A DNA stretch of 64,000 bases from Calothrix sp. NIES-2098. Lineage in GTDB: Bacteria > Cyanobacteriota > Cyanobacteriia > Cyanobacteriales > Nostocaceae. The stretch covers positions 285,599 to 349,598 of the forward strand of contig AP018172.1 of NCBI GenBank assembly GCA_002368175.1. The letters run 5' to 3'. A program made the position numbers and the translations under genes. Below are positions 4,567-47,145 of the stretch, one piece after another (positions within the stretch are counted from its first letter, which is position 1; every line of letters starts with the position of its first letter). Below the pieces are notes generated by a model, which had not been told where the DNA came from, ran no database searches, and saw only the letters and a list, made by a program, of their open reading frames with translations.

Positions 4567-6612
4567 ATGAACTACTTACTCGTTAAATTTTACGCGGCAG
4601 TTCAAAAAGTCGCTAATACTTTCCTGTGCGGATTGCTGCAACTAAGAAACAAACACTTGTTAGTGTTTGATATAGTTTTGTTTGCAGTTACCCCATTATT
4701 AGCGCTAATTATTCGTTTAGACGGTGATTTTTCCTTAAACGCATACATCAAAGAGTTAGGCACTGCCACCATACTTTTTATAGCAGTCAAACTAACTTTA
4801 TTTTGGAATTTAGGTTTTTATAGACGTTACTGGCGCTATGCTAGTGTTGAAGAATTGACATACATAGCCATGTTGGTGTTGGCTGCGGTAGTCATTCAAA
4901 GTCTTTTATTTGATGTGCTTCAATATATACCTTATTTAAGCAGAGAAAAACTGCCACAATCGCTACCATTTATTGACGGATTACTTTCCTTTACCTTTAT
5001 TGGGGGCTTACGTTTCAGTGTACGAGCCGTAGAAAGAACTAGCCAAAAACAAGTATTTTTGAACCAACACGAAAGGGTGTTAGTAGTTGGTGCTGGAAGT
5101 GCAGGGGTATCCCTCGTCCAAGAAATGCAAAGAAGTCCCCAATTGGGTTTTTATCCTGTAGCTTACATTGATGACGATCCACAAAAATTAAACGTACACA
5201 TCCGTGGGATTCCAGTTATAGGCGATCGCTTCCAAATTCCTGAGGTTGTACAATCTCTCCAGATCCAAAAAGCGATCATTGCAATGCCAACAGTTGCAGG
5301 CAAAGTGATCCGGGAAATTGTCGATATTTGCAAAGCAAGTGGAGTTCAAACTTGCACATTACCTGGCATACATGAAATCCTCAACGGTCGTGTCCGAGTA
5401 GACAGCATTCGCGATGTCAGAATTGAAGACTTGCTCAGACGCGAATCTGTGCAGACAGATATTGAAAGAGTTGCCCAATTTATTGCTGGCAAGAAAGTCT
5501 TCATTACTGGTGCAGGTGGTTCTATTGGTAGCGAACTTTGCCGTCAAATATTTAACTGTCGTCCTGCGGAAATGATCCTGATTGGACATGGAGAAAACTC
5601 TGTCTTCAATATCCAACAGGAATTAGAACAACTGGTTCAAGTCATCAAACAAGATAGCCAAGTAAAACCGAATACCCCACGCATTTCTGCATTCATTGCT
5701 GATATTCGCTTTCGCTATCGCTTAGAACAAGCCTTTGAGCAATTCCAGCCGGATGTGATTTTTCATGCCGCAGCCCATAAGCACGTTCCGCTGATGGAAT
5801 TAAATCCAGCAGAAGCAATCACCAATAACGTCCTCGGCACCAAAAATCTGCTGGAACTGGCAAAGCAGTATGATGTCCAACATTTCGTGATGATCTCTAC
5901 AGACAAGGCAGTTAACCCTACCAATGTCATGGGTGCGAGTAAGCGAGTCGCCGAAATGTTAGTTCTGCAAACTGCCAGAGAGACTGGAAAGCCTTATGTA
6001 GCCGTGCGTTTTGGCAATGTGTTAGGCAGTCGTGGCAGTGTTGTTCCTACCTTCAAAAAACAAATTGCCGCAGGCGGGCCAGTAACCGTTACCCATCCCG
6101 ATATCTGCCGTTATTTCATGACAATACCAGAGGCAGTTCAACTAGTTTTGCAGGCTGTAGTACTGGGTCGCAGTGGGGAAGTATTAATGTTGAATATGGG
6201 CGAACCAGTGAAAATAGTCGATCTAGCCAAAGAACTAATTCACCTTTCGGGATATGAAGTCAACAAAGACATTGACATTGTATTTACAGGTTTACGACCG
6301 GGTGAAAAGTTATTTGAGGAACTATTTATTGAAGGAGAAGAATACGAACCAACTCCCCACGAAAAACTGTTTGTAGTGAAAAATGCTAGTCGAATTATTC
6401 CCGCAAATCTGAATGCGATCGTAGAAAATTTGTGTAAAGCAGCAGATAAAAACGATGGGGCTTTAATTAAATATTTAATTGGGCAATTAGTCACGGGATA
6501 TAGTCCAAAATCTTGGCAATCAGAAGCTCCAATCCATCTCACAACAACCGAGCCAAGAAATTCCGCTAATCAGATAGCTAAAGTAGGAAAAATGAAACCA
6601 CAAGGGGCTTAA
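4567..6612 (+). CDS. polysaccharide biosynthesis protein, CapD/WbpM/PglF-type membrane-anchored NDP-sugar 4,6-dehydratase/epimerase
   Basis: N-terminal multi-TM region. Two Rossmann motifs, VVGAGSAGV and FITGAGGSIGSEL. SDR-like catalytic region. First gene of the same-strand polysaccharide block. Confidence 0.8.
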   Translation: MNYLLVKFYAAVQKVANTFLCGLLQLRNKHLLVFDIVLFAVTPLLALIIRLDGDFSLNAYIKELGTATILFIAVKLTLFWNLGFYRRYWRYASVEELTYIAMLVLAAVVIQSLLFDVLQYIPYLSREKLPQSLPFIDGLLSFTFIGGLRFSVRAVERTSQKQVFLNQHERVLVVGAGSAGVSLVQEMQRSPQLGFYPVAYIDDDPQKLNVHIRGIPVIGDRFQIPEVVQSLQIQKAIIAMPTVAGKVIREIVDICKASGVQTCTLPGIHEILNGRVRVDSIRDVRIEDLLRRESVQTDIERVAQFIAGKKVFITGAGGSIGSELCRQIFNCRPAEMILIGHGENSVFNIQQELEQLVQVIKQDSQVKPNTPRISAFIADIRFRYRLEQAFEQFQPDVIFHAAAHKHVPLMELNPAEAITNNVLGTKNLLELAKQYDVQHFVMISTDKAVNPTNVMGASKRVAEMLVLQTARETGKPYVAVRFGNVLGSRGSVVPTFKKQIAAGGPVTVTHPDICRYFMTIPEAVQLVLQAVVLGRSGEVLMLNMGEPVKIVDLAKELIHLSGYEVNKDIDIVFTGLRPGEKLFEELFIEGEEYEPTPHEKLFVVKNASRIIPANLNAIVENLCKAADKNDGALIKYLIGQLVTGYSPKSWQSEAPIHLTTTEPRNSANQIAKVGKMKPQGA

Positions 6613-7801: not shown

Positions 7802-9115
7802 ATGCAACAGTACAAATCACTCACACTACGCCGTAACTTCTCCTGGACTTTTGTTGGTAATGCTGTCTATGCAGCTTGCCAATGGGGAATGTTGATGGTG
7901 CTTGCGAAACTCGGTAGTCCGGAGATGGTAGGGCAGTTCACATTAGGGCTGGCAATTACTGCACCCGTATTTATGTTTACAAATCTCGATTTGCGCCATG
8001 TCCAGGCGACAGACGCTAAATCCCAGTATCTCTTCAGCGACTACCTTGGTTTGCGGATCGTCTCAACATTGCTGGCACTTGTGGTGATTGTAGGAATTAC
8101 TTTCAAAGCTGGATACAACTGGGAGACATCGCTAGCCATTTTCCTGGTTGGTTTGGCAAAGGCATTCGAGTCTATTAGCGACGTTTTCTACGGGCTGTTT
8201 CAGCAGAACGAACGAATGGATCGCATTGCCTTTTCGTTGATGATTAGAGGCCCGCTGTCGCTGTTACTGCTAGGTATAGGCGTTTACATGTCGGGTCGCG
8301 TTGTGTGGGGAGTAGTTGGCTTGGCTATGGCTTGGGCTGTGGTTTTGCTTGGCTACGACCTGCGTAATGGCAGATTGCTTCTCAATCATCTGCGAGCAAT
8401 GCCACAGGATGAAAGAGGGAGAAAAGGCGAACAGGCGTTTGCACTGCGGCCTCAGTGGCAAAAGAGAACATTGACAAAACTAGTATGGCTAGCTCTGCCC
8501 ATCGGTTTTACAATGGCGCTCATTTCTCTGAATAGCAACATACCGCGCTATTTTATTGAGCAAAATTTAGGGCAGCGGGAACTGGGAGTTTTTGCAGCGA
8601 TCGCTTACTTAATGGTAGCAGGCAGCATGGTAGTGACTGCTCTAGGACAATCCGCTACTCCTAGGCTGGCTAAATACTATGCAGACGGAAATGGCATCGC
8701 TTTCCGAACACTGCTGATCAAAATGGTAGGGATCGCTACTCTACTTGGCGGAATAGCCGTCTTGCTGGCGCTTGTCGCAGGTAAAGAGATTTTAACCGTT
8801 CTTTACCAACCTGAGTATGCCCAGCATCAAAATTTGTTTGTATGGTTAATGGTTGCAGCTGGCATTGGTTATGTATCTTCTTTTCTCGGTTATGGAATTG
8901 CTGCGGCCAGATACTTCCGTATCCAAGTACCTTTGTTTGCTTTAGTAACAACTTCATCAGCTATAGCTTGTCTCTGGTTGCTGCCAATTTATGGACTACC
9001 AGGAGCAGCATTCGCACTGATGATTTCGGGAATTGTCCAAGCTGTACTCAGTGTAGGAGTTCTCTTTCAAATACTACGCAGGCTTAACAGACAGCAGGAA
9101 GAAGTAACTCTTTAA
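7802..9115 (+). CDS. wzx: Wzx-type oligosaccharide flippase (MOP superfamily polysaccharide biosynthesis protein)
   Basis: 437 aa with about 12 predicted TM helices. Typical N-terminus of polysaccharide-biosynthesis/flippase proteins. Lies in a Wzx/Wzy cluster. Confidence 0.65.
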   Translation: MQQYKSLTLRRNFSWTFVGNAVYAACQWGMLMVLAKLGSPEMVGQFTLGLAITAPVFMFTNLDLRHVQATDAKSQYLFSDYLGLRIVSTLLALVVIVGITFKAGYNWETSLAIFLVGLAKAFESISDVFYGLFQQNERMDRIAFSLMIRGPLSLLLLGIGVYMSGRVVWGVVGLAMAWAVVLLGYDLRNGRLLLNHLRAMPQDERGRKGEQAFALRPQWQKRTLTKLVWLALPIGFTMALISLNSNIPRYFIEQNLGQRELGVFAAIAYLMVAGSMVVTALGQSATPRLAKYYADGNGIAFRTLLIKMVGIATLLGGIAVLLALVAGKEILTVLYQPEYAQHQNLFVWLMVAAGIGYVSSFLGYGIAAARYFRIQVPLFALVTTSSAIACLWLLPIYGLPGAAFALMISGIVQAVLSVGVLFQILRRLNRQQEEVTL

Positions 9116-10054: not shown

Positions 10055-10057
10055 GTC

Positions 10058-16618: not shown

Positions 16619-17263
16619 ATGATTACTGAGAATTTTCAAGGTGTTGATTCTACTGACTATAGTAGATTAATCAAATTTGTATTAGATAAAGTTGTAGCGG
16701 CGATCGCGCTCATTCTGTGCCTACCTGTAATTGTAATTGTGGCGATCGCTATTTACTACCGCATGGGTAGTCCTGTGATTTTTGCCCAACCTCGTCCCGG
16801 TCAAAACGGACGTATTTTTAAATTCTACAAGTTTCGCACTATGACCAATGAGCGCGATGCTAACGGTAATCTTTTACCCGATGCAAAACGCCTCACATCT
16901 TTCGGTAAATTTCTGCGAAAAACCAGTTTAGATGAACTTCCCCAACTGTTGAATGTTCTCAAGGGTGACATGAGTTTCGTTGGCCCGCGTCCTTTAATGG
17001 TCAAGTATCTTGACCGCTACACACCCGAACAAGCCCGCCGTCATGAAGTCAAGCCTGGGATTACCGGTTGGGCACAAGTTAACGGTCGCAATTCTATTTC
17101 TTGGCAAGAGCGATTCAAACTAGATATTTGGTATATCGATAATTGGAGTTGGTGGCTTGATTTAAAAATACTGTTTTTGACGGTATGGAAAGTACTTAAA
17201 AAAGAAGGAATTAGCCACGCTAATCATGACACCACGATGGAAGAATTTATGGGGAATAATTAA
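16619..17263 (+). CDS. initiating sugar transferase (bacterial sugar transferase / monotopic phosphoglycosyl transferase, WbaP/PglC-like)
   Basis: 214 aa with a single N-terminal TM helix. FVGPRPLM and [12 protein letters not shown] motifs. Confidence 0.8.
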
Positions 17264-17405
17264 TTAGTCTCCACGGAAACCTGAAGTATGAGGTATTAAT
17301 TTATCTTTTCCACTTCATACTTCTTTATTCAAGAAAATTCTGGAATGAAGGCAAAAGAAAATAGAGGCATTTCTCAACAAACTTTTGCTCAAGCGTTTGC
17401 AGGCA

Positions 17406-18677: not shown

Positions 18678-18693
18678 GAGGTAAAAACTTGCT

Positions 18694-19707: not shown

Positions 19708-19721
19708 AAGGGAGTTGTGTT

Positions 19722-20378
19722 ATGGCGCAAGTTGTGATTTTTGGTACTAGTGAGATTGCAGAAATAGTTCACTTCTATCTCACCCATGATTCTGAACATG
19801 AAGTAGTAGCATTTACTGTTGATGAAGCTTATCTTCAGGCAGATAGTTTTCATGGTCTACCACTGGTTCCCTATGAAAAACTGGAAAAGTATTATCCACC
19901 TTCTGAATATAAATTGTTCGTTGCCATTAGTTATAAAAATGTCAACAAATTGCGGGCAGAAAAATATTTAGATGCCAAAAAGCGCGGCTATAGTTTTATT
20001 ACTTATATCAGTTCTCAAGCATCTTATCACGGTACACCAGTGGGGGAAAACTCCTTCATCTTTGAACATAGCGTCATCCAACCTTTTTCTGCCATTGGTA
20101 ACAACTGTCTGCTGTTTGGTGCAAATCATGTCAGTCACCACTGCGTCATTAAAGATCATTGCTTCTTAACTTCTAATGTTGTACTTGGTGGTGGCGCAAT
20201 TATCGAAGAATACACTTTTCTCGGTTTGAATGCTACCGTCCGCAATTATATTCATATCGGCAAAGAAAATATTATTGGTGCGGGAGCAATCATTCTCAGC
20301 AATACAGAAGACCAAGCTGTTTATTCTCCTGGTGAAACTCCCAAGTTTGATGTGCCAAGTAATTTCATTCGCATTTAA
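19722..20378 (+). CDS. hexapeptide-repeat acyltransferase, NeuD/PglD family
   Basis: N-terminal Rossmann-like MAQVVIFGTS followed by left-handed beta-helix hexapeptide repeats (LGGGAIIEEYTFLGLNATV). ATG 19722 is preceded by GAAGGGAG. Confidence 0.7.
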   Translation: MAQVVIFGTSEIAEIVHFYLTHDSEHEVVAFTVDEAYLQADSFHGLPLVPYEKLEKYYPPSEYKLFVAISYKNVNKLRAEKYLDAKKRGYSFITYISSQASYHGTPVGENSFIFEHSVIQPFSAIGNNCLLFGANHVSHHCVIKDHCFLTSNVVLGGGAIIEEYTFLGLNATVRNYIHIGKENIIGAGAIILSNTEDQAVYSPGETPKFDVPSNFIRI

Positions 20379-21840: not shown

Positions 21841-24800
21841 ATGATGAATCTGCAAAAAGAACTACCTATATCGAGTTTGTCTTGTTTCGTAGTCGGTGAT
21901 GGTGTTCTGCCATTAAGTTGCTTGGAAATTCTGTTACAGAAAGGTTGGCAAGTGCTGGGAATTTATTCAATGGATAATTCCTTGCAAAAGTGGGCGCAAG
22001 AACATGGCATCAACCACGCTGCTTCTCGAACCGATTTTAACGCACAACTTTTGAGCAACCAGTACGATTATCTTTTCAGCATTAATAATGTCAAGTGGAT
22101 TATTCCCGCTGATGTAATTGCCCAGGCACGCAAAGCAACCATTAACTACCACGACTCACCATTGCCAAAGTATGCTGGCTTGTATGCGACTTCTTGGGCT
22201 TTGCTGAATGGTGAAACCAATCATGCTGTCACCTGGCACGAAGTTACCTGTGAAATTGATGCCGGACGGATATTAAAACAGCAAGAAGTGCCAATTTTGG
22301 CAGATGATACCGTATTTATGCTGAATACTCGCTGCTTCGATGCCGCAGTCAAATCTTTTGACGAACTGGTAACGGAATTAGCAACAGATAAAGTGCAGCC
22401 TTATCCCCAGGATCTATCTCAACGGAGTTATTTTGGCCTCAGCGATCGCCCACCCTCAGCGGGGATAATATCATTTGATGACAGTAGTAAAGATATTTGT
22501 AACCTGGTCAGAGCGCTAGAGTTTGGGCCAGTTGCCAACCAACTAGGTGTGGCTAAACTTTGGTTGCCAGGAGGAGTAGTTGCTGTAGGATCTGCCCGTT
22601 TAACCAAAACTTCCCAAGGCATTCCCGGACAGGTGCTGAATCTAGATGCCGATGGGTTGCACGTTGCTACCGTGGATGGCGCGGTGCAATTGAGTAAGTT
22701 CGCTACTTTAAATGGCAAAGAACTCTCTGTAGACAACTTGAGTGAAGATTATGGTGTGGTAGTCGGTAATGTTTTACCTGTAATTGATGCCGCTACCAAA
22801 GATGCAATTAGCCAGCGTAATGCTGCTATCTGTCGTTATGAAACGACATGGGCAGAACGGTTAAAGACATTAGCGCCGTTTCAGCATCCTTATTTACCAG
22901 TGGAACTATCTAGCCAAACAGGAGATAGTCCCCTGCACCGTTATTCCATCTCGCTACCAACTCCACAGCTAGAGCCGAAATCCCTGTTAACAATGTTTGC
23001 CGCCTACTGTGCGCGGCTGACAACCGAGGCAGAATTTGACTTAGGGCTGCAAACCAACGCACAGCGCAGCATTGCACCAGAGATATTTGCCCAACGGGTG
23101 CCGATCCGCATTCAAGTGCAGCCTGAAGAGTCGTTCGATCGATTCCAAGAACGGCTGACAGTGGATCTAGATCGGACATCGCGGCTGGGTAGTTTTAGAA
23201 ATAGCTTGTTAAGACGTTATCCAGAACTGCAAGCAAATTCTCAAAATCATTTTCTCCCGGTAGCGATCGCTCTAGTTCCCAGCCCCGATCGACTCGATTG
23301 GCAGCATCTCAATGCAACTATTGCCTTGGTGGCTTACGAAGATGGTAGCTTACCAGAAGTGGTACATACAGGCGCAATTAATGACTTTTACAGTCAGGCG
23401 ATCGCCCAACAACTTCAGAGTTTAATCGCTGCGTGCATTGAGCATCCCCAACAACCTCTGGCGCAACTACCACTACTTTCCGCAGCCGAACAGCAGCAAA
23501 TTTTGGTGGAGTGGAACCAGACAGCACAACCCTTTCCCAGCTATCTGTGCATCCACGAGCTATTTGAGCAGCAAGCAGCCAAAACTCCGGATGCGATCGC
23601 TGTTGTTTTTGGCGCGCAACAGCTCACCTACCGAGAATTAAATGAAAAAGCCAATCAACTAGCCCACTATCTGCGGCTTTGTGGAGTTGGCCCCGATGTT
23701 TTGGTAGGTTTGCACGTGGAGCGATCGCTGGAAATGATAATTGCGTTACAGGGAATCCACAAAGCCGGTGGCGCATATCTGCCCCTTGACCCCGACTTTC
23801 CCCACGATCGGCTGGCTTTCATGTTGCAAGATTCTCAAACGCCAGTTATCGTGACGCAGCAGAAGTTGATTTCCAATTTGCAGGTGGAACGCGATGTTCG
23901 CATTGTTCCCATAGATACGATGTGGAGCGAAATTGCCCAACAACCTACCAGCAATCCCCATAGTGGAGTTAAACCGGAGAATTTAAGCTACATCATCTAC
24001 ACTTCCGGTTCCACAGGTAAGCCCAAGGGCGTGATGGTAGAGCATCGCAATGTAGTCAACTTCTTTACTGGTATGGATGATGTAATTGATCGCGATCCAC
24101 TAGGAGTCTGGTTGGCAGTCACCAGTTTATCCTTCGATATTTCCGTATTGGAACTATTCTGGACTCTGGCGCGGGGCTTTAAGGTCGTCATCTATAATCC
24201 CAAGGCAGAACGCGCCCGTTCTACTTCCCAGAAGTTAAAGCTACAACATGAATCGAAAACCATCGATTTTAGTCTGTTTTACTTCTCCAGCCACGAACAA
24301 GGCGAAGATGCCGCTGCCAAGTATCGGCTATTATTTGAAGGTAGCAAATTTGCCGATCGCAACGGGTTTACTGCTATCTGGACTCCCGAACGCCACTTCC
24401 ACGCCTTTGGTGGCTTATTCCCCAACCCCGCCCTCACCAGTGCCGCGATCGCCACAGTTACCAACCAGATTCAAATACGCGCTGGTAGTTGTGTGTCTCC
24501 ATTACATAGCCCAGTGCGTATTGCCGAAGATTGGTCTGTAGTCGATAACTTCTCCCGCGGTCGAGTAGGCATCTCCTTCGCCGCTGGCTGGCAACCCAAT
24601 GACTTTGTGCTGCGTCCCGAAACCTTTGAGAACCGTAAAGACATCATGTTCCAGCAAATTGAGGAGGTACGGGCACTCTGGCGCGGGGAAACTGTCAACT
24701 ATCCCAACGGTAAGGGAGAAATGGTGGCAGTGCAGACACTTCCGCGTCCGATTCAGCCCGAACTCCCAATCTGGATTACAGCAGCAAGCAATCCGGAAAC

Positions 24801-26454
24801 ATTCCAGATGGCAGGAGCCAAAGGCTATCATATCTTGACCCATCTGCTAGGGCAAAGCCTGGAAGAGTTAGCAGCGAAAATTGCCATTTATCGTCAAGCC
24901 TGGGCAGAAAATGGTCATCCCGGTAAAGGCACTGTCACCCTGATGCTGCACACTTTCGTCGGGGAAAATGATGATGCAGTCAAAGAAATTGTCCGTCAGC
25001 CGATGCGGCATTACCTGGCTAGTTCTCTCGATTTGATTAAAAAAGCCGCTTGGTCATTCCCGACGTTTAAGCAGAAAACTACTAACGACAACGGTCAATT
25101 CTCGGTATCTCATCTATCTGACCGAGATAAGGATGAAGTGTTGGACTTCTCCTTTGAGCGTTACTTTGAAACTAGCGGTTTGTTTGGCACAATAGAAACC
25201 TGTTTGCAGATGGTCGATCGCATCAAAGGTATTGATGTCGATGAAATTTCCTGCCTTATTGATTATGGTGTCGAGACAGAAAAAGTATTAGCCCAATTGC
25301 CACTGCTGAATCAGGTGAAAGCACAAGCCAATGGCCAGGCAGGAAATCCAGAGCAGACACAAGATTACTCTATAGCTGACCTCATCAAGCAGCATCAAGC
25401 CACCCATCTGCAATGCACGCCATCAATGGCTAGTATGCTGATTGCCGATAGCACGGCTCGCGAAGCTATAAGACAGATAAAGACGATGATGGTTGGCGGT
25501 GAAGCCTTTACCGAAGCCTTAGCCGAGCAACTCAAACAAATTATTCCGGGGCAGATTCACAATATGTACGGCCCCACAGAAACCACCATCTGGTCTACAA
25601 CTCATACGCTGACAGAGGTGAATGGAGTGGTGCCCATTGGCAGAGCGATCGCCAACACTGAGTTGTACATTCTAGATAAGCATCGGCAACCCGTGCCAGT
25701 AGGCATGGCGGGCGAACTACTCATCGGTGGTAAAGGAGTGACTCGCGGCTATCTCAACAGGCCAGAGTTAACCCAAGAAAGGTTTATTCCCAATCCCTTC
25801 AACAACAATCCAGAGGATCGCCTTTACCGTACCGGAGACTTGGTGCGTTACCGCATGGATGGCAATCTAGAGTTTTTAGGACGCATAGACTTTCAGGTAA
25901 AAGTCCGGGGCTACCGGATTGAACTGGGAGAAATTGAGACGATTTTAAGCCGACATGAGGCAGTGCGAGAAGCCGTAATTGTGGTTCGTGAAGATGTGCC
26001 TGGGGACAAGCGCCTTGTCGCCTATATATTGCCACAACCGGGAAATCAACCCGCCCATGCCACTCTGCGAGAATATCTACTCTCCCAATTGCCAGAGTAC
26101 ATGGTGCCCTCTAATTTCGTCGTGCTGGAAGCATTTCCTCTGACACCAAACAATAAAGTTGACCGCAAGGCATTACCTGCTCCGATCGCGGTGCTACAGG
26201 ATAGCGAGCCTGTCAGAACCACAATGCCTCAAACCGAAATTGAGCAAACCCTGACTGAAATCTGGCAGAAAGTGCTGCAAGTCTCGCAAGTGGGAATCAA
26301 AGACAACTTCTTCGATCTGGGGGGAAATTCCTTAGTTGCAGTCACATTAATGTCGGAAATTCGCTCCGCGTTTAATGTCAACTTACCCTTGATTAGCTTG
26401 TTCCGATCTCCCACCATACCCGGAATTGCCAAAGAGATTGAGGTATGTACATGA
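21841..26454 (+). CDS. NRPS-like protein: formyltransferase domain, partial (C-terminal) condensation domain, adenylation domain with an inserted luciferase-like monooxygenase (LLM) domain, and PCP
   Basis: Residues 1-300 carry Fmt/ArnA-like motifs (HDSPLPKYAGL, Fmt C-terminal domain). LPLLSAAEQQQILVEWNQT is a C-A linker. A-domain motifs: A3 LSYIIYTSGSTGKPKGV, A4 FDISVLELF, then about 450 aa of LLM (FSLFYFSS...GISFAAGWQPNDF...LMLHTFVGEND), then A5 NMYGPTETT, A7 YRTGDL, A8 GRIDFQVKVRGYRIELGEIE. The PCP motif is FFDLGGNSL. Confidence 0.8.
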   Translation: MMNLQKELPISSLSCFVVGDGVLPLSCLEILLQKGWQVLGIYSMDNSLQKWAQEHGINHAASRTDFNAQLLSNQYDYLFSINNVKWIIPADVIAQARKATINYHDSPLPKYAGLYATSWALLNGETNHAVTWHEVTCEIDAGRILKQQEVPILADDTVFMLNTRCFDAAVKSFDELVTELATDKVQPYPQDLSQRSYFGLSDRPPSAGIISFDDSSKDICNLVRALEFGPVANQLGVAKLWLPGGVVAVGSARLTKTSQGIPGQVLNLDADGLHVATVDGAVQLSKFATLNGKELSVDNLSEDYGVVVGNVLPVIDAATKDAISQRNAAICRYETTWAERLKTLAPFQHPYLPVELSSQTGDSPLHRYSISLPTPQLEPKSLLTMFAAYCARLTTEAEFDLGLQTNAQRSIAPEIFAQRVPIRIQVQPEESFDRFQERLTVDLDRTSRLGSFRNSLLRRYPELQANSQNHFLPVAIALVPSPDRLDWQHLNATIALVAYEDGSLPEVVHTGAINDFYSQAIAQQLQSLIAACIEHPQQPLAQLPLLSAAEQQQILVEWNQTAQPFPSYLCIHELFEQQAAKTPDAIAVVFGAQQLTYRELNEKANQLAHYLRLCGVGPDVLVGLHVERSLEMIIALQGIHKAGGAYLPLDPDFPHDRLAFMLQDSQTPVIVTQQKLISNLQVERDVRIVPIDTMWSEIAQQPTSNPHSGVKPENLSYIIYTSGSTGKPKGVMVEHRNVVNFFTGMDDVIDRDPLGVWLAVTSLSFDISVLELFWTLARGFKVVIYNPKAERARSTSQKLKLQHESKTIDFSLFYFSSHEQGEDAAAKYRLLFEGSKFADRNGFTAIWTPERHFHAFGGLFPNPALTSAAIATVTNQIQIRAGSCVSPLHSPVRIAEDWSVVDNFSRGRVGISFAAGWQPNDFVLRPETFENRKDIMFQQIEEVRALWRGETVNYPNGKGEMVAVQTLPRPIQPELPIWITAASNPETFQMAGAKGYHILTHLLGQSLEELAAKIAIYRQAWAENGHPGKGTVTLMLHTFVGENDDAVKEIVRQPMRHYLASSLDLIKKAAWSFPTFKQKTTNDNGQFSVSHLSDRDKDEVLDFSFERYFETSGLFGTIETCLQMVDRIKGIDVDEISCLIDYGVETEKVLAQLPLLNQVKAQANGQAGNPEQTQDYSIADLIKQHQATHLQCTPSMASMLIADSTAREAIRQIKTMMVGGEAFTEALAEQLKQIIPGQIHNMYGPTETTIWSTTHTLTEVNGVVPIGRAIANTELYILDKHRQPVPVGMAGELLIGGKGVTRGYLNRPELTQERFIPNPFNNNPEDRLYRTGDLVRYRMDGNLEFLGRIDFQVKVRGYRIELGEIETILSRHEAVREAVIVVREDVPGDKRLVAYILPQPGNQPAHATLREYLLSQLPEYMVPSNFVVLEAFPLTPNNKVDRKALPAPIAVLQDSEPVRTTMPQTEIEQTLTEIWQKVLQVSQVGIKDNFFDLGGNSLVAVTLMSEIRSAFNVNLPLISLFRSPTIPGIAKEIEVCT

Positions 26455-28298
26455 AACTATCCAAAATATTTTTAGCAATTCTCGCACTCATGACTGTAGT
26501 TGTATGTCAAAGCGGTGTATCACAAAAAAATGTGTCAGCTTTAGCAAAAAGAACAGTCATAGATAATGAAAGAGGATTTTACTATGTATCTCCCTATGAT
26601 GGCGACTGGTCAAAAGTAGGGGCTTATATAGGCCTCGCTCATTATAATACTTTCGCAGCCATGAATCGCGAAGCTATAGCCGGAATTCACGGACGGTTTC
26701 AACACTTTCATGCTGATGATGTCAACAGATATGCCTATTTTCCCTACAACGAGTTAAAGAAATACGAAACTGATGAGTTAGCTCGTGGTCGCCCTCCCCT
26801 CTGGATTACTGCTACCTATAACGGTCAAAAGCGACCTGTAATTTTTGAGTGGTTATCAAAAGAAAAAGCGCAGGCAGTAAACTTTACTGACGAACGTTAC
26901 ATTAATTTTTTTATTAATAAATATGTACGTCAGAAACTGCAAAAACAAACCTATCAAAATCTGTGGTTAGGATTGGACAATTGTGCTTTTAAGTACGAAC
27001 TTTATGGCGTGTTCGACGCTCAAGGCAGGTTTGTAAATAACATCAAATGGGATGAGCCATTTCCTCAAAACGATCGGGAATTTTTGCAGGCAGGAAAGTA
27101 TTTCTTTAAACGTTTAAAGGAACTAGCACCGGATATTAAGACAATTTGTAATGAAGGTAGTGTATCCGATGAAAGCCAGTACAATGAAGTTTTTGCCAAT
27201 ACTGACGGAGTAATATTAGAAAATTTCCTCGGCGAGATATATGGCTCAGATGGCGATTATGTCAGGTTGAAATATTATCGTTCTTATCAGCGAATGAAGA
27301 ATTTTGCAGCCAATAAAGTGCAGATTTATCAACCGCGTCTAGACAAGCCAGAAAAAACTATTAGCAGTATGTACCTCGCCTACTTAATTTTTGCAGGAGA
27401 GAATCGCTTTTTCAGCCCTTATAAGAACGATAGCGAGGAAATTGACCCAAAACAGTATGCCGAAATTAAAAACACGCTGGGTGCGCCTACTGCTGAAGCA
27501 AAAGATGAAAAAGAACCGGGTAAAGGTGATGGTTATCGCCTCTATTCGAGAGCTTGTGAAGGTGGAATTGCCTATTTCAATCTGACAGGAAAAACTCAGA
27601 CTATCAATCTACCATCTGGTAAACAATACTTCGATCGCGATGGGAATCTCGTAACGCGCATCAGTATCAAAGATAAAGAAGCAAAATATGTACTCTTTAC
27701 ACCTGGGGCGCGAGTAGCAAAACCTGCCATTAATCCAGTTAGACCCAGCACTGTTAATGGTTCAGTTGCTGTGACGCTCAGTACAACAACTCCTGGTGCA
27801 ACTATTAGGTACACTCTAGATAATAGCGAACCCAATAAAAATTCTCCGATCTACACTAGCCCTATTAAGTTAACTAGTAATGTCACCGTCAAAGCAAAGG
27901 CATTTAGCTTAAATGCCCGTGAAAGCTTTGTTTCTGCTGCTGCTTATAAAATTACCAACCAAATCCCCAGCGCAGAATTCCACTTGAGTTCGGCAAGCGG
28001 TAGTGAATTTATTAATGTAGATTATCCATTGGTAAAACTGAGTAATCCATCAGCAGAACCTGTAACAATTAACTACTCAGTGACAGGTGGCACGGCTAGC
28101 GTTGATGTAGACTACAAGATGGTAACTGGCACGCTGACATTCATGCCAGGAGAAATATACAAGTACTTTCCGATTGCAATAATCAATGACAATAAAGCAG
28201 AAAATAATGAGACTATAAAAGTGACGCTCTCTAGCGCCAAAAATTCAACCTTGGGAAGTAACAAATCATATACATATACCATCAACGATAACGATTAA
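26451..28298 (+). CDS. secreted protein with C-terminal Fn3/chitobiase-like and Calx-beta domains; N-terminal domain unknown (possible glycoside-hydrolase-like)
   Basis: Signal peptide MKLSKIFLAILALMTVVVC. C-terminus VDVDYKMVTGTLTF...NDNKAENNETIKVTL is Calx-beta-like. The ATG overlaps the NRPS-like gene's TGA (ATGA). Confidence 0.45.
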   Translation: MKLSKIFLAILALMTVVVCQSGVSQKNVSALAKRTVIDNERGFYYVSPYDGDWSKVGAYIGLAHYNTFAAMNREAIAGIHGRFQHFHADDVNRYAYFPYNELKKYETDELARGRPPLWITATYNGQKRPVIFEWLSKEKAQAVNFTDERYINFFINKYVRQKLQKQTYQNLWLGLDNCAFKYELYGVFDAQGRFVNNIKWDEPFPQNDREFLQAGKYFFKRLKELAPDIKTICNEGSVSDESQYNEVFANTDGVILENFLGEIYGSDGDYVRLKYYRSYQRMKNFAANKVQIYQPRLDKPEKTISSMYLAYLIFAGENRFFSPYKNDSEEIDPKQYAEIKNTLGAPTAEAKDEKEPGKGDGYRLYSRACEGGIAYFNLTGKTQTINLPSGKQYFDRDGNLVTRISIKDKEAKYVLFTPGARVAKPAINPVRPSTVNGSVAVTLSTTTPGATIRYTLDNSEPNKNSPIYTSPIKLTSNVTVKAKAFSLNARESFVSAAAYKITNQIPSAEFHLSSASGSEFINVDYPLVKLSNPSAEPVTINYSVTGGTASVDVDYKMVTGTLTFMPGEIYKYFPIAIINDNKAENNETIKVTLSSAKNSTLGSNKSYTYTINDND

Positions 28299-28385
28299 AG
28301 GAGGGTAATTAATAAGTTTTCAATCGGGAAAATATGATAAAAACAATTAGGTTGATGGTGTTTTTCTACGAAAAGACAGGGGCAC

Positions 28386-29006
28386 ATGAGTAACCAAAGA
28401 ATCGGGATAATCGGAGCTGGAGGCCATGCCAAAGTTGTAGCAAGTACGGCGATTGCTGCGGGATACAAAGTGGTAGGTTTTTATGACGATGACCCACAAA
28501 CATGGGGCAGTCATATTTTTGACATCCCCGTTGTTGGGCCAATTAGCGAGCTGACGTCTCAAAGTTGTTCTCATGCAATCCTGGGTATAGGCTCTAACGA
28601 AGTCCGGAAGCGTCTGGCAGAAAAGCTCAATCTTGAGTGGATTACTGTGGTTCATCCCTTCGCTTGGGTTCATCCCGAAGTTTCATTAGGTGTAGGTACA
28701 GTTGTTTGTGCAGGTGCAATAGTTCAGCCCTATGCACAAATTGGTTCCCATGTGATTCTGAATACTAAGGCCAGCGTCGATCATGACTGCTATGTAGGAG
28801 ATTACGTACATATAGCTGTGTCCCATTTGGCAGGTGGTGCATCCGCAGAAGAGGGTGCATTTCTGGCGCTGGGTAGCGTTGTGTTTCCTGGTGTTCGGGT
28901 TGGAGCTTGGGCTACGGTGGGTGCAGGGGCAATAGCGAGAAAAGACGTGCCGCCAAAAACCATCGTAGCAGGGGTGCCTGCCAGAGTAATTAGAGAAGTT
29001 TCGTAG
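28386..29006 (+). CDS. hexapeptide-repeat sugar acyltransferase, NeuD/PglD/PglB family
   Basis: MSNQRIGIIGAGGHAKVV Rossmann-like N-terminus, then beta-helix repeats (IVQPYAQIGSHVILNTKASVDHDCYVGDYVHI). Confidence 0.75.
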   Translation: MSNQRIGIIGAGGHAKVVASTAIAAGYKVVGFYDDDPQTWGSHIFDIPVVGPISELTSQSCSHAILGIGSNEVRKRLAEKLNLEWITVVHPFAWVHPEVSLGVGTVVCAGAIVQPYAQIGSHVILNTKASVDHDCYVGDYVHIAVSHLAGGASAEEGAFLALGSVVFPGVRVGAWATVGAGAIARKDVPPKTIVAGVPARVIREVS

Positions 29007-29077
29007 TAGGTCAATAGGCTCAAATTGAGGAGCCTGACGATGTGTTCCCATAAGTGATTTCTGAATTTAATTAAAAT

Positions 29078-29160
29078 CGTGACTCAACAAATTCTGCTTT
29101 CAACTCTTTACATGGGCGATCGCAAACTAGAATGCGTCAAAGTAGCCTTTGACACTAAGG
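29078..29160 (+). pseudogene. decayed duplicate of the 5' end of the downstream DegT-family aminotransferase gene
   Basis: 29086-29157 is about 85% identical at the DNA level to 30905-30978. It encodes QQILLSTLYMGDRKLECVKVAFDT versus KQILLSTPHMGDRELEFVQEAFAT, then diverges and stops after about 55 codons. Confidence 0.6.
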
Positions 29161-29353
29161 GGAACGCTCGTCTTAGCCCTGTTGTAATAGTTGGAAGCAA
29201 GAATTTGTGTACCTGCTGTGAGTTTTCATACCACAGCGCTGCATGAGGCTGGCAATTAGTTGGCCTGAGCGATTGAGAATGAGGATTAAAAAATACTTGA
29301 TTAGATTTGCCAGTTAAGCTCTCAAAGCAACCAAATACCAAGAAGTTAACAAT

Positions 29354-30892
29354 ATGAAGATTACTTCTTTAGGTCACGCAGGTCTCCAGCTAGAACTCAA
29401 AAGTGCTAAATTACTGGTCGATCCGTGGCTTTCTCCAGAGGGAGCGTTTTTAAGTTCGTGGTTTCAATATCCTGATAACCAACATTTGATGGCATCTCTA
29501 GCGCTGCAACCAACTGCGATCGCTCTTTCTCACGAGCATTTAGACCACGTCGATCCTTGGTTTCTCGCCCAACTACCACCAGAGACACCGACGATTATTC
29601 CCCGTTATCCCTCGCCAGTATTAAAACAGAAAATTGCCGCAGCTGGACTAAAGAACATTATAGAAGTACCGCAGTGGCAATCAATACAAATAACTGAAGA
29701 AATTAGCGTGTTCTTTGTCTCAGAAGAGTCACCGATGAACCACGATTCAGCTGTGGTAATTGTGGGTGAGGGACAGACACTCATCAATCTCAATGATGCG
29801 CGCTTGTCAGTAGCTCAACTACGCAACATCCGTACTAAAGTGGGTGGAGTAATTGATGTGTTAGCACTGCAAGGTGCAGGAGCTTCTTGGTATCCTATCT
29901 GCTATGAGTACCCAGAAAGCCGCAAAAAAGAACTTTCCCAGCGCAAGCGCATAGCTAAGTTCAACTATCTCAAACGAGCGATCGCAGCTGTTGAACCAGT
30001 CAATATTATTCCTTTTGCCGGGCCTCCTTGTTTTCTAGATGCAGAACTGACTTGGGTAAATGCTGAGATGGAAGAGGGCATTTTTCCCGATCTAGAGCAG
30101 GTAATAAATTGGCTCAAAGAGAGAGAAATTCACAATACTGTGAGTTTGCTACCAGGTGATGCTTTTGATATCGCTAGCAAGCAAAAACAAGCCGATCCGA
30201 TCTGGAGTGATTTTTGCTTTAGTCAGCGTGCTTCTTACCTCAAAGACTATGCTGCGCGTAGAACTGCCAACATTGCCGCCTTGAAAGCTCGTTATCCCCA
30301 ACCTACCGAGTCTCTTTACCCGCCATTCCGAGACTATTTTCAGAACTTATTAGCAATGAGTCCCTACTTCAACAGTAAAATTGGGATGCGAATTGGCTTT
30401 GAGATTACAGGCCCGGGTGGAGGAAAATGGGCAGTCGATTTTCGCTCTGGGAAAGAAGGAGTGGATGACGAGATGGGTGAATGTAGCTATGGATATCGTT
30501 TCGCATCAAGATGGCTACCTTCATTATTGGATGGTTCCTTACCTTGGGAAGACTTTTTTCTATCTTTACGATTTGAGGTATGGCGAAATCCAGATATCTA
30601 TAATGACCATCTTTTAGGACTCCTGAAATTTGCTTGTCCCCAATCCTTGCAAGCTGTGGAAGAATACGAAAATGCAATGGATTCCCAAGAGCAGATTACA
30701 ATTCACTGCGAAGGAGATAATTACTTAGTACAGCGCCATTGTCCCCATGCAGGTTTTGACTTGCAGGAGGTAGGAGAAGTATTACCTGGAGGAATTTTGC
30801 GCTGTTTAGGTCATCATTACGAGTTTGATTTAAATACAGGAAAATGCCTCAACGGCAAATGCAACTTACTTAGCAGCAAGCGGATTAATTAG
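29354..30892 (+). CDS. metallo-beta-lactamase-fold protein fused to a C-terminal Rieske [2Fe-2S] domain
   Basis: N-terminus MKITSLGHAGLQLE...LLVDPW and HEHLDHVD are the MBL motif. The C-terminus has CPHAG...CLGHHYEF, a Rieske CxH...CxxH arrangement. Confidence 0.65.
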   Translation: MKITSLGHAGLQLELKSAKLLVDPWLSPEGAFLSSWFQYPDNQHLMASLALQPTAIALSHEHLDHVDPWFLAQLPPETPTIIPRYPSPVLKQKIAAAGLKNIIEVPQWQSIQITEEISVFFVSEESPMNHDSAVVIVGEGQTLINLNDARLSVAQLRNIRTKVGGVIDVLALQGAGASWYPICYEYPESRKKELSQRKRIAKFNYLKRAIAAVEPVNIIPFAGPPCFLDAELTWVNAEMEEGIFPDLEQVINWLKEREIHNTVSLLPGDAFDIASKQKQADPIWSDFCFSQRASYLKDYAARRTANIAALKARYPQPTESLYPPFRDYFQNLLAMSPYFNSKIGMRIGFEITGPGGGKWAVDFRSGKEGVDDEMGECSYGYRFASRWLPSLLDGSLPWEDFFLSLRFEVWRNPDIYNDHLLGLLKFACPQSLQAVEEYENAMDSQEQITIHCEGDNYLVQRHCPHAGFDLQEVGEVLPGGILRCLGHHYEFDLNTGKCLNGKCNLLSSKRIN

Positions 30893-30901
30893 GTGATGCA
30901 A

Positions 30902-32047
30902 ATGAATAAACAAATTCTGCTTTCAACCCCTCACATGGGCGATCGCGAACTCGAATTCGTCCAAGAAGCCTTTGCAACTAACTGGATAGCCCCTGTTGGC
31001 CCCCATGTCGATGCTTTTGAACAGGAATTTTGTCAAGTTACTGGTGCGGGTTATGCGGCGGCTGTCAGTTCGGGGACAGCAGCTATTCATTTAGCTTTGC
31101 GATTAATTGGGGTGGAATCGGGAGATGAAGTTTTTTGTTCGACGCTGACCTTTGCGGCTACTGCTAATCCGATAGTTTATCAGGGAGCCAAACCAGTATT
31201 TATTGATAGCGATCGCACTTCTTGGAACATGAATCCCGATTTGTTGCAAGCAGCCCTAGAACACCGCGCCCGCATTGGCAAATTACCCAAAGCAGTTGTG
31301 CTAGTACATTTATACGGGCAAAGTGCAGACATCGATCCGATCCTCAAAGCTTGCGATCGCTATGAAATTCCTTTAATTGAAGATGCAGCAGAAGCCTTAG
31401 GTGCTACCTACAAAGGCCGACATCCTGGAACCTTTGGCAAAATTGGTATTTATTCCTTCAACGGCAATAAAATTATCACTACATCTGGCGGTGGGATGTT
31501 AGTTTCAGATGACCCAGATTTAGTTAAAAAAGCCCGATTTCTCGCCACTCAAGCCCGCGATCCGGCACCTCATTACCAACATTCAGAAATAGGCTTTAAC
31601 TATCGCCTCAGCAATGTTTTGGCAGGGATTGGTCGGGGTCAATTGCAAGTTTTAAGCGATCGCGTCGCCGCTAGACGCCGCAACTTTGAGATTTACCAAC
31701 AAGCTTTAGGAAAGTTGCCAGGAATCGAATTCATGCCAGAAGCCAGTTTTGGACGTGCTACCCGTTGGCTGACTTGCCTGACCATCAATCCCCAGGTTTT
31801 TGGTGCAGATCGAGAACAAGTACGCCTAGCACTTGCCGCACAACAAATTGAAGCCCGTCCTGTCTGGAAACCTTTGCACCTCCAGCCCGTATTTGCTAAC
31901 TGTGAAGCTATTGGTGGTAGTGTAGCAGAAGAATTATTTACACAGGGTCTTTGCTTGCCTTCAGGCTCGAATCTCACAGACGAAGATTTAGAGCGAGTAA
32001 TTAATGCGATCGCCAAAATGCACCATCCTATAGAACAACTCATTTGA
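30902..32047 (+). CDS. DegT/DnrJ/EryC1/StrS-family PLP-dependent sugar aminotransferase
   Basis: LSTPHMGDRELEFVQEAF, SGTAAIHLAL, and the catalytic lysine region FSFNGNKIITTSGGG. Alternative starts are at 30893 and 30896. Confidence 0.85.
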   Translation: MNKQILLSTPHMGDRELEFVQEAFATNWIAPVGPHVDAFEQEFCQVTGAGYAAAVSSGTAAIHLALRLIGVESGDEVFCSTLTFAATANPIVYQGAKPVFIDSDRTSWNMNPDLLQAALEHRARIGKLPKAVVLVHLYGQSADIDPILKACDRYEIPLIEDAAEALGATYKGRHPGTFGKIGIYSFNGNKIITTSGGGMLVSDDPDLVKKARFLATQARDPAPHYQHSEIGFNYRLSNVLAGIGRGQLQVLSDRVAARRRNFEIYQQALGKLPGIEFMPEASFGRATRWLTCLTINPQVFGADREQVRLALAAQQIEARPVWKPLHLQPVFANCEAIGGSVAEELFTQGLCLPSGSNLTDEDLERVINAIAKMHHPIEQLI

Positions 32048-32158
32048 GAGGCTAGATTTGACGATTGCGATACTGTTGTTTAATCGTCCTTAACAACAGT
32101 TCATAATTCAAAATGAATTGAAGAGTTCTATACAATAAAAAAAACATAAAAATTGATT

Positions 32159-34354
32159 ATGGAAACTCAAGCACCTTTATTTAGTTTTAATAACTATTGG
32201 CACATACTGAAGCGCCGTTGGTTCCCTAGTTTAGGAGTTTTTATCCCAGTTTTTCTGCTGACTGTCATGGCTCTCTCTTTAAAAAAACCTGATTACGAGG
32301 CACAGGGAAAACTCTTATTTCAAAGGACAAATACTATCTCCTCGCTAACAGGAGTAGGAACAGAAATAGGCAAGTTAGAAGCAGTCGCTCAAGATAATAA
32401 AACTAATCCCTTAAATACAGAGGCAGAAATCATCCGTTCCGTTCCCCTAATCCAAAGAACTATAGATGAACTGGGATTGAGAAACGAGAAAGGAGAGATT
32501 TTAAAAATTAATGAATTTTTGTCAAAACTGTTTGTCAAAGATGTCAATGGAGCCGACATTATCACAGTTTCTTACAGAGACCGCGAGCCTGAAACAACTG
32601 CAAAAGTTGTGAATACAGTGATGAATATATATTTAGAACACAACGTATCTTCGCGGCGCAAAGAAGCAGCATCTGCTCGCCAGTTTCTGCAAAAAGAATT
32701 ACCTCATGCTGAATCAGTTGTGAGAAAAGCTGAAGCTGAACTTGCAAAGTTTAAAGATCGAAACAAAGTAGTTTCCTTGCAAGAAGAAGCAACTAAAGCA
32801 CTAGAAATTATTACAGACTTACAAAAACAAATTGGTGACTCGGAATCTCAAATTGCTAGTATCAACGCCCAGTCTGAAGATCTGCGACGGCAATTGAGTA
32901 TGAATTCTCAAGGAGCAGTAGCTATGACCTCGATTAGCCAATCTCCTGGGGTACAAGATATTCTCAAAGAGATTCAACAGCTCGAATCTCAACTGGCAGC
33001 TAGGCGAACTGTTTTGCAAGATAGCCATCCACAAATCGTTAGTTTACAAGATAAGTTAGATGCCTTAAAGAAGATACTACAACAGCGAATTAAACAGGTT
33101 GTAGGTACAAGTCAACCACAAGTAGCAGATGGTAATTTGCAGGCAGGAGCGTTGCAACAACAACTTACCGCAGACCTTGTGAGATTACAATCAACCCGTC
33201 TGGGTTTAGCCAGTCAAGTTGCAGCCTTGTCCCAATTACAAGCAGATTATAAACAACGCCTCCAAGCCCTTCCGAGATTGGAACAGCAACAGCGCCAGCT
33301 AGAGCGCAAAGTGCAAGCATCCCAATCTACCTATTTACTGATGCTACAAAAACTTCAAGAAAGTCAAATAGCAGAAAATCAGAATGTCGGTAACGCTAGC
33401 TTGGTATCTGAAGCTCAAGTTCCTGACAAGCCGATTTCTTCGCCGTTGCTATCGTATATAACTGCTGGCTTACTAGCTACCTTAGCTGCTTTGGCAACTA
33501 TGTATATTTTAGAAGCCAGAGATAAATCAATCAAGACTGTTGATGAAGCCAAACAATTATTGGGACTAACTTTGTTAGGGGTAATTCCTTTCTCTAACGA
33601 ACCAACAACAGCTCTTACTAGCAATAATGAACTAGAGCCATATACTTCTAGACTGTTTTTGAGAAATGCTACGCGATCGCCCATTAGCGAAGCTTATCGA
33701 ATGCTGCGGGCAAATTTGAAGTTCATGAGCGCTGATAAAGAATTAAAGGTGATTGTTGTCACCAGTTCTGTACCAGGAGAAGGTAAGTCAACAGTAGCAG
33801 CTAATTTAGCTTTAGCAATGGCGCAGCTGGAGCGTAAAGTTTTACTCGTAGATGGAGATTTGCACCGTCCAGTTCAGCATCTTATTTGGGATGTAACTAA
33901 TAGCCAAGGTCTCAGCAATGTGATTGTTGGAGAGTCGGAAATCAAGACAGCCACCAACAAAGTTATGGATAACATGGATAATTTAGATGTCTTGACTGCT
34001 GGAGTTGTACCTCCCTCGCCCGCATCTCTGCTGGATTCAAAACGCATGGCTTCTTTAATGCAGAATTTTGCTGTTAACTACGATTTTGTGATTATTGATG
34101 CTCCCGCATTAAACGTTGCAGCTGATGCAGCGACATTAGGACAAATGGCTGATGGCGTTTTATTTGTCGTTCGTCCTGGGGTAGTTGATTCTGTGAACGC
34201 CGCTATGGCTTGTGATATTTTAGAAAAATCTGGTCAGAACGTCCTAGGACAAGTTGTGAACGCAGTTATTCCCAAAAATGAAAGCCATAGTTACTACTAT
34301 TTCAACGAAGAATCTGACCTGCCAAAATATTCTCTGGCCATCAGTCGCAGGTAA
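32159..34354 (+). CDS. wzc: Wzc/GumC-type polysaccharide co-polymerase with C-terminal BY-kinase (tyrosine autokinase) domain
   Basis: N-terminal TM segment plus Wzz-like coiled-coil periplasmic region, a second TM segment, Walker A VVTSSVPGEGKST, and a Tyr-rich tail SHSYYYFNE. Confidence 0.8.
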   Translation: METQAPLFSFNNYWHILKRRWFPSLGVFIPVFLLTVMALSLKKPDYEAQGKLLFQRTNTISSLTGVGTEIGKLEAVAQDNKTNPLNTEAEIIRSVPLIQRTIDELGLRNEKGEILKINEFLSKLFVKDVNGADIITVSYRDREPETTAKVVNTVMNIYLEHNVSSRRKEAASARQFLQKELPHAESVVRKAEAELAKFKDRNKVVSLQEEATKALEIITDLQKQIGDSESQIASINAQSEDLRRQLSMNSQGAVAMTSISQSPGVQDILKEIQQLESQLAARRTVLQDSHPQIVSLQDKLDALKKILQQRIKQVVGTSQPQVADGNLQAGALQQQLTADLVRLQSTRLGLASQVAALSQLQADYKQRLQALPRLEQQQRQLERKVQASQSTYLLMLQKLQESQIAENQNVGNASLVSEAQVPDKPISSPLLSYITAGLLATLAALATMYILEARDKSIKTVDEAKQLLGLTLLGVIPFSNEPTTALTSNNELEPYTSRLFLRNATRSPISEAYRMLRANLKFMSADKELKVIVVTSSVPGEGKSTVAANLALAMAQLERKVLLVDGDLHRPVQHLIWDVTNSQGLSNVIVGESEIKTATNKVMDNMDNLDVLTAGVVPPSPASLLDSKRMASLMQNFAVNYDFVIIDAPALNVAADAATLGQMADGVLFVVRPGVVDSVNAAMACDILEKSGQNVLGQVVNAVIPKNESHSYYYFNEESDLPKYSLAISRR

Positions 34355-47094: not shown

Positions 47095-47145
47095 TTAGCA
47101 ATTCAAACTTTCTGCGCCTCTGCGCCTTTGCGCGATCCAAATCCC

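Follow-up and report, generated by a model that had tools for sequence, protein, structure and literature searches.

A stretch of 64,000 nucleotides from the cyanobacterium Calothrix sp. NIES-2098 (contig AP018172.1, positions 285,599 to 349,598; hereafter the window) carries, at positions 29354..30892 of its + strand, a gene of the NamH/CMAH hydroxylase family that lies inside a polysaccharide biosynthesis cluster. NamH is the uridine diphosphate (UDP)-N-acetylmuramic acid (UDP-MurNAc) hydroxylase of mycobacteria and related actinomycetes, and CMAH is the cytidine monophosphate (CMP)-N-acetylneuraminic acid hydroxylase of deuterostomes. Homology and gene context together make it probable that the Calothrix protein is a three-domain, O2-dependent hydroxylase that makes an N-glycolyl sugar of the bacillosamine type, and that this sugar is used for a surface polysaccharide and not for peptidoglycan. 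The protein belongs to a widespread sister clade of NamH, present in cyanobacteria, in many actinomycetes with N-acetylated peptidoglycan, and in Gemmatimonadota, Acidobacteriota and Planctomycetota. As a wider and more tentative proposal, which we nonetheless consider a serious possibility, this clade would N-glycolylate UDP-bacillosamine-type or other UDP-N-acetyl sugars that start Wzx/Wzy-dependent surface polysaccharides, giving a previously unreported class of glycan. The new element is the distinct, polysaccharide-linked sister clade, with a probable new substrate; the architecture of the enzyme was already known.

The open reading frame (ORF) starts with ATG and encodes 512 amino acids followed by a stop codon. 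Its product matches, at 100% identity, a Calothrix sp. NIES-2098 entry at NCBI named “Rieske 2Fe-2S domain-containing protein.” An earlier examination of the DNA without database searches (the sequence-only reading) had picked out a metallo-beta-lactamase (MBL) signature, HEHLDHVD, and a Rieske motif pair, CPHAG and CLGHHYEF, and these are present at residues 60-67, 463-467, and 484-491, respectively. The protein is made up of an MBL-fold catalytic domain (approximately residues 1-320; 29354..30313), an SCP2-like middle domain of the Rv3818 type (residues 324-438; 30323..30667), and a C-terminal Rieske [2Fe-2S] domain (30686..30889), all encoded on the + strand. In Pfam searches, Rieske (PF00355, residues 450-503) passed its cut-off of 20.3 bits with 27.3 bits, SCP2_Rv3818 (PF25451, residues 324-438) narrowly missed its cut-off of 28.2 bits with 27.6 bits, and Lactamase_B_2 and Lactamase_B_3 both matched inside residues 2-128 below their cut-offs; the assignment of the first domain draws on these below-cut-off matches together with the fold. 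Pfam found no Rieske non-heme iron oxygenase (alpha-subunit) catalytic domain in the protein, and, with the Rieske domain at the C terminus and a catalytic domain of MBL fold, a Rieske oxygenase alpha subunit was ruled out.

Conservation was counted over 85 family members, drawn from both of the clades described below. The full set of two cysteine and two histidine Rieske ligands is there, C463 and H465 in the CxH motif (nucleotides 30740-30748) and C484 and H487 in the CxxH motif (30803-30814), each of them conserved in at least 95% of the homologs. The same level of conservation was seen for H8, D23, H60, H62, D64, H65, D67, D131, D148, D168, Q173, and D229. The candidate metal ligands of the MBL domain are H60, H62, D64, and H65 (nucleotides 29531-29548) together with D131 and D148, and D168, Q173, or D229 are possibly further ligands. 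Both clades have the HxHxDH motif together with D131, D148, and all four Rieske ligands. Because the ligands are so highly conserved, the pairing of MBL and Rieske motifs represents a conserved architecture and not a chance pattern.

An AlphaFold2 model of the protein, built with 26 homologs as input, was confident throughout (predicted local distance difference test, 90.7; predicted template modelling score, 0.89). In line with the comparison to MBL-fold di-iron oxygenases that the sequence-only reading had proposed, FrsH and CmlA, both di-iron beta-hydroxylases, headed the Foldseek matches (E of about 2e-11), and the model and these matches support an MBL fold for the N-terminal domain. The converse outcome named in that reading, a grouping of the MBL domain with RNase J or CPSF, was not seen: low TM-scores and high root-mean-square deviations in Foldseek, and the lack of a beta-CASP match in Pfam, ruled out these nucleases. 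The nearest solved structures to residues ~434-512 are T4moC and BphF, Rieske ferredoxins of multicomponent oxygenases. They have the same CxH...CxxH ligands as the Calothrix protein but are free-standing, whereas its Rieske module is fused to the catalytic protein. This closeness to electron-transfer ferredoxins implies an electron-shuttle role for the Rieske domain.

The closest characterised relatives of the protein, NamH and CMAH, both hydroxylate an N-acetyl group to N-glycolyl, and this homology supports the N-acyl or sugar hydroxylase predicted by the sequence-only reading. The namH gene is Rv3818 (PMC6194230), and NamH converts UDP-MurNAc, O2, and NADPH into UDP-MurNGlyc (UDP-N-glycolylmuramic acid) (PMC2722178) by means of a protein with an N-terminal UlaG/MBL domain and a C-terminal Rieske domain (PMC10050696). 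CMAH had been taken to be the one well-known enzyme uniting a Rieske centre with an MBL-like domain; NamH is another, and since it has the MBL-then-Rieske order of the window protein, the apparently inverted order is in fact a known architecture. A genome scan recovered mycobacterial NamH orthologs at four loci (L072, L075, L076, and L087). Proteins of 514-520 amino acids throughout Mycobacterium and Mycolicibacterium share at least 80% identity with the one from L072, and one mycobacterial member of this ortholog group, P0343, bears the UniRef name UDP-MurNAc hydroxylase. The window protein aligns colinearly with P0343, residues 1-510 on residues 1-512, at 30% identity (E 4e-66). It therefore resembles NamH (Rv3818/MSMEG_6412) in length and in having MBL/UlaG, Rv3818-type SCP2-like, and Rieske domains in the same order. 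It differs in belonging to a separate deep clade, in its cyanobacterial host, in lying within a PglC-initiated polysaccharide cluster where the NamH gene stands alone, and in its predicted substrate, which is not UDP-MurNAc. In addition, E124, P127, and M128, close to the metal motifs, are conserved in at least 95% of the members of the Calothrix clade but not in NamH proper.

Comparison with CMAH was made with the database protein P0415; a CMAH query sequence 97% identical to P0412 served for retrieval only. Residues 1-421 of the window protein align with residues 139-556 of P0415 at 24% identity (E 9e-15), and the Rieske segment, residues 420-500, aligns with residues 13-93 (E 6e-4). The alignment is thus permuted, as had been expected from the motif order, with the Rieske domain N-terminal in CMAH and C-terminal in the window protein. 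The chemistry of CMAH, conversion of N-acetyl to N-glycolyl on a nucleotide-activated sugar, is the chemistry we propose for the window protein, but the substrate of CMAH is a CMP-linked nonulosonic acid, and no sialic-acid pathway genes were found among the window ORFs scanned. Since its Rieske domain is not N-terminal and no such genes occur among the scanned window ORFs, we rejected CMAH proper as an identification. CMAH takes its electrons from cytochrome b5. The cyanobacterial protein matches mammalian CMAH P0415 better (E 9e-15 over ~420 residues) than mycobacterial NamH P0343 does (E 9e-8 over 88 residues), and the segments common to the two include WEDFFLSLRF...NPDIYNDHL in the window protein and LWDDLYIGFQ...DPDIYHHL in CMAH. 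Judged from these alignments, the polysaccharide-linked clade may be a closer bacterial relative of CMAH than NamH is.

The family comprises 2247 representatives at E <= 1e-3 and 233 at E <= 1e-30, and among the matches listed nearly all of full length run colinear with the window protein. When 85 proteins were placed in a neighbour-joining tree, a deep split appeared between clade A, the NamH clade, which consists of Mycobacterium, Ilumatobacteraceae, and a few others, and clade B, which holds the window protein; the latter does not group with mycobacterial NamH. Clade B contains other cyanobacterial proteins at 71-86% identity to the window protein, proteins of Acidimicrobiia at 54-61%, those of Actinomadura, Spirillospora, Kribbella, and Nocardioides at ~43%, and also members from Gemmatimonadota, Acidobacteriota, and Planctomycetota. 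Bit scores to the window query ran from 210 to 250 for the NamH clade versus 360 to 966 for its own clade.

The two clades also differ in their genomic surroundings. Proteins of the window's own cluster were used as queries against each of 21 clade-A and 65 clade-B loci, with a reach of ~9 kb, and the counts were compared by Fisher tests. A PglC-type initiating transferase was found near 48 of the 65 clade-B genes and none of the 21 clade-A genes (p 5e-10), a family 4 (GT4) glycosyltransferase near 46 of 65 versus 1 of 21 (p 5.7e-08), and a DegT aminotransferase near 22 of 65 versus 0 of 21 (p 0.0011). The median gap between the hydroxylase gene and the PglC-like gene was 1.1 kb, and independently called genes with precomputed Pfam hits gave the same neighbourhoods. 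The P0126 locus was so short that it gave no useful information on neighbours. The PglD-hydroxylase-PglE order of the window recurs in two Dolichospermum loci (L009 and L012), and the order hydroxylase-DegT-Wzc is kept in cyanobacterial loci L009-L012 and L058. FemAB-like genes lie beside the hydroxylase gene in the sister cyanobacterial clusters L004, L006, L010, L011, and L058, with an ATP-grasp gene in addition in L004, L011, and L058; none of these five loci contains a PglD-like match. A further locus, L060, taken from the genome bin of an uncultured Actinomycetes member, has its NamH-like gene split over three ORF pieces (8944-10535), probably as a pseudogene or through an assembly frameshift. 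PhyH-type (phytanoyl-CoA dioxygenase-like) genes, accompanied by the NamH-like gene, were seen beside PglC in L010 (6887-7756), L058 (4984-5958), and L006 (3302-5762), and the glycans of these sister clusters may receive more than one oxidative modification.

In the window, positions 4567-35452 are occupied by a Wzx/Wzy/Wzc-type polysaccharide cluster, in which a flippase and a Wzc kinase are encoded along with four GT4 glycosyltransferases, a methyltransferase, and enzymes of sugar modification; the genes described here are on the + strand. The cluster begins with a PglF-type membrane UDP-GlcNAc (UDP-N-acetylglucosamine) 4,6-dehydratase (4567..6612; PF02719, 395 bits), the best PDB match of which is WlaL (5bju, E 8e-87), which we take to be Campylobacter jejuni PglF. 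A Wzx-type flippase (7802..9115; PF01943) follows, and farther on lies a PglC-type small monotopic phosphoglycosyl transferase (16619..17263), the predicted initiating enzyme, which matches the N,N'-diacetylbacillosamine (diNAcBac)-1-phosphate transferase 8g1n end to end (E 7e-72, 244.7 bits, against 142 bits for WbaP). It retains features published as fingerprints of diNAcBac-specific enzymes (PMC10186338), namely the loop GxLLP, the aromatic-box residues YxxxY and WxxxF, and a phenylalanine at the C terminus. Directly upstream of the hydroxylase gene is a PglD/NeuD-type sugar N-acetyltransferase (28386..29006), which scored 199.4 bits against TIGR03570 (cut-off, 160.8) and matched PerB (4ea7, 2e-34), the Neisseria PglB acetyltransferase (4m98, 6e-29), and C. 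jejuni PglD (3bss, 8e-19) in the PDB. Downstream, a PglE/LegC-type DegT sugar 4-aminotransferase (30893..32047; PF01041, 343 bits) begins at the base right after the hydroxylase stop codon; its best PDB matches (E 7.5e-96), 1o61 and 4ztc, whose deposited titles are “aminotransferase” and “Aminotransferase homolog,” are presumably C. jejuni PglE. A Wzc-type chain-length regulator and tyrosine autokinase (32153..34354), identified by domain matches and conserved order, comes next.

The window therefore holds a full PglF/PglE/PglD/PglC-like set, close homologs of the Campylobacter/Neisseria Pgl pathway to UDP-diNAcBac, with the hydroxylase gene between the PglD and PglE homologs and with export by Wzx/Wzy/Wzc as the distinguishing features. 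We know of no hydroxylase in the classical Pgl pathway. The sequence-only reading had described the gene as flanked by two NeuD/PglD-like genes and a DegT gene. One NeuD/PglD gene does lie upstream and the DegT gene downstream, but 9 kb separate the ORF from the second NeuD-like gene upstream of it (19677-20378), which therefore does not flank it. The same reading was borne out in noting that the window lacks a NeuB/PseI-type synthase and a CMP-transferase: the Pfam scan, which took in nearly all window ORFs of at least 120 amino acids, found no domain of either kind. Its suggestion that the substrate is not a sialic acid fits both this result and the complete Pgl-like set.

From homology and gene context, we infer the metal, the electron donor, the substrate, and the product of the enzyme as follows. 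The Rieske domain would take electrons from a general cellular donor, by homology probably from NADPH through a ferredoxin or a ferredoxin-NADP reductase, and hand them on to an iron site in the MBL domain whose carboxylate and histidine ligands would be H60, H62, D64, H65, D131, and D148. This site would activate O2 and hydroxylate the methyl group of an N-acetyl substituent on a UDP-linked amino sugar to give N-glycolyl. Clade and gene context suggest that the substrate is an intermediate or the product of the UDP-2,4-diacetamido-2,4,6-trideoxyhexose (bacillosamine-type) pathway. The PglC-like transferase would then load the N-glycolylated sugar onto undecaprenyl phosphate, so that it forms the reducing end of a surface polysaccharide made by the Wzx/Wzy/Wzc route. 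Of the N-acetyl groups, the one at C2 is the likelier target, because NamH hydroxylates the same position on MurNAc and because this group, which derives from UDP-GlcNAc, is the only one expected in the sister clusters that lack PglD.

An ordinary NamH is the most familiar alternative: the protein would hydroxylate UDP-MurNAc to provide N-glycolylmuramic acid for Calothrix peptidoglycan, and its location in a polysaccharide cluster would be incidental. The shared three-domain architecture and full-length homology fit this role, many close homologs of the window protein are named “UDP-MurNAc hydroxylase” by the Joint Genome Institute (JGI), and, like namH, certain clade-B relatives (54-61% identity) are stand-alone genes in housekeeping surroundings. 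Even so, we regard it as quite unlikely. Identity to mycobacterial NamH is just 30% across a deep clade split, the tight linkage to PglC clusters recurs throughout clade B and was never seen in the NamH clade, and the window gene abuts PglE and follows PglD. N-glycolylmuramic acid has been described for certain actinomycetes only (PMC2722178), and several clade-B host families have N-acetylated muramic acid: it is N-acetylated and not N-glycolylated in Kribbellaceae, Nocardioidaceae, and Streptosporangiaceae (PMC6113628) and likewise N-acetylated in Actinomadura (PMC8631618), so that clade B is unlikely to serve peptidoglycan glycolylation in those hosts. A number of observations nevertheless weigh against N-glycolylation of a polysaccharide sugar. 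The clade split comes from a single neighbour-joining tree with no bootstrap support, and 17 of the 65 clade-B loci have no PglC-like gene within ~9 kb; among these 17 are relatives from Acidimicrobiia and Actinomycetota, 54-61% identical, in a housekeeping context. A peptidoglycan role may therefore persist for some clade-B enzymes. Clusters of the Kribbella type carry PglC, Wzx, and Wzy with neither PglF nor DegT nearby, which means that the substrate is not uniformly bacillosamine. The window contains no reductase or ferredoxin gene, our literature searches found no N-glycolyl sugars in cyanobacterial exopolysaccharides and no N-glycolyl bacillosamine, and for every member of clade B the proposed function derives from homology and context. 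As regards other wall polymers, the literature yielded no glycolyl groups for those of Kribbella and Actinomadura. For Tannerella forsythia UB4, a possible N-glycolyl legionaminic acid has been reported by authors who knew of no bacterial precedent (PMC5378307).

The remaining alternatives concern the reaction itself. The enzyme might act on something other than an N-acetyl methyl group, such as the beta-carbon of a carrier-tethered amino or acyl group (in the manner of CmlA and FrsH, by way of the adenylation-peptidyl carrier protein [PCP] fusion encoded at 21841-26454), another acyl substituent, or a sugar ring carbon. The top Foldseek matches are CmlA and FrsH, MBL-fold di-iron beta-hydroxylases of non-ribosomal peptide synthesis with carrier-protein-tethered amino acids as substrates; a 1537-residue formyltransferase/adenylation/monooxygenase/PCP protein and a second NeuD-like acyltransferase are encoded in the cluster; and sister clusters have AMP-binding, beta-ketoacyl-acyl carrier protein synthase III-like, ATP-grasp, and FemAB-like genes by the hydroxylase gene, which suggests that unusual N-acyl groups are built there. 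However, sequence similarity to CmlA is marginal and confined to the MBL part (window residues 6-222 on CmlA 258-484, E 0.02), whereas NamH and CMAH match over the catalytic and SCP2-like region. CmlA and FrsH lack a Rieske or SCP2-like domain and have an N-terminal domain of their own where the window protein begins with the MBL fold, and the conserved partner of clade B is PglC and not a PCP or adenylation gene. We consider such a target fairly unlikely. The modelled fold by itself does not decide between an oxygenase and a hydrolase, and the only NCBIfam match of the protein, at 30.7 bits far under the cut-off of 144, is to a “metal-dependent hydrolase” model, as might be expected of a redox-regulated MBL-fold lactonase or phosphodiesterase acting on a sugar derivative. 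Both characterised homologs are hydroxylases, however, the invariant fused Rieske electron-transfer domain would have no role in hydrolysis, and the histidine usual in the third motif of MBL hydrolases is replaced throughout the family by the invariant aspartate D131. These three features favour an oxygenase and make a hydrolase very improbable indeed, and N-glycolylation of a bacillosamine-type sugar remains the reading we prefer.

N-glycolyl groups are a small chemical change with large biological effects. N-glycolylneuraminic acid (Neu5Gc) is a xeno-antigen in humans. As an agonist of NOD2, muramyl dipeptide is much stronger in its N-glycolyl than in its N-acetyl form (PMC2722178). If clade B does make N-glycolylated bacillosamine-type sugars, then N-glycolylation of amino sugars would extend beyond the sialic acids of animals and the peptidoglycan of actinomycetes to bacterial surface polysaccharides in several phyla. 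Glycan chemists would gain a gene marker with which to predict N-glycolyl groups from sequence, and the blanket annotation of these proteins as “UDP-MurNAc hydroxylase” would need correcting. If the enzyme were instead an ordinary NamH, the finding would be routine. The clade is also a source of soluble bacterial enzymes whose alignment to CMAH is better than that of NamH, and since our PDB searches returned no solved structure of NamH or CMAH, these could serve as models of the metal site and of electron transfer.

Several other features of the polysaccharide cluster deserve mention. A 348-bp non-coding gap (29007-29353) separates the hydroxylase gene from its upstream neighbour in a cluster that is otherwise tightly packed; promoter- and terminator-like matches around the gene did not exceed the expectation from shuffled sequence, and nothing stood out on reading the gap. 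The block 21841-32047, which takes in the 1537-residue gene, PglD, the hydroxylase, and PglE, has a G+C content of 0.44-0.49, compared with 0.42 for the window and ~0.41 for PglF, PglC, and Wzc, and could have been acquired separately. The 1537-residue fusion (21841-26454, + strand; G+C 0.48 against 0.42) combines N- and C-terminal formyltransferase domains and a carrier-protein domain with an adenylation domain that is interrupted by a monooxygenase of the luciferase-like type (residues 810-1123). Its role may be to make an unusual N-acyl substituent of a sugar. The end of its ORF overlaps the start of a gene for a 617-residue protein (26445-28298, + strand) with chitobiase/hexosaminidase C-terminal, Fn3-associated, and Calx-beta domains. 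Right after the PglC-like gene (17385-20378, + strand) come a pyridoxal phosphate-dependent decarboxylase of the ornithine/diaminopimelate/arginine type, a PylC-like ATP-grasp ligase, and the second NeuD-like acyltransferase, the last two in ORFs that overlap by 31 nt; this run suggests a second, non-acetyl route of N-acylation in the same cluster. Near the start of the cluster, the product of 6727-7728 (+ strand) matches the N-terminal domain of eukaryotic glucosamine inositolphosphorylceramide transferase 1 (GINT1_N, 223 bits).

Two further gene groups lie beyond the glycan cluster. At 45559-48360 (+ strand), an XPB-like helicase with damage-recognition, ResIII, and Helicase_C domains is directly followed by a DUF790 protein (521 bits); together they resemble a conserved helicase-partner pair that has nothing to do with the glycan cluster. 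The run at 50584-57679 (+ strand) encodes an uncharacterised 462-residue protein, a von Willebrand factor A (VWA) CoxE-like protein, an AAA_5 (dynein-related) ATPase, and a 940-residue DUF5682 protein, and looks like a module of the MoxR/VWA type.

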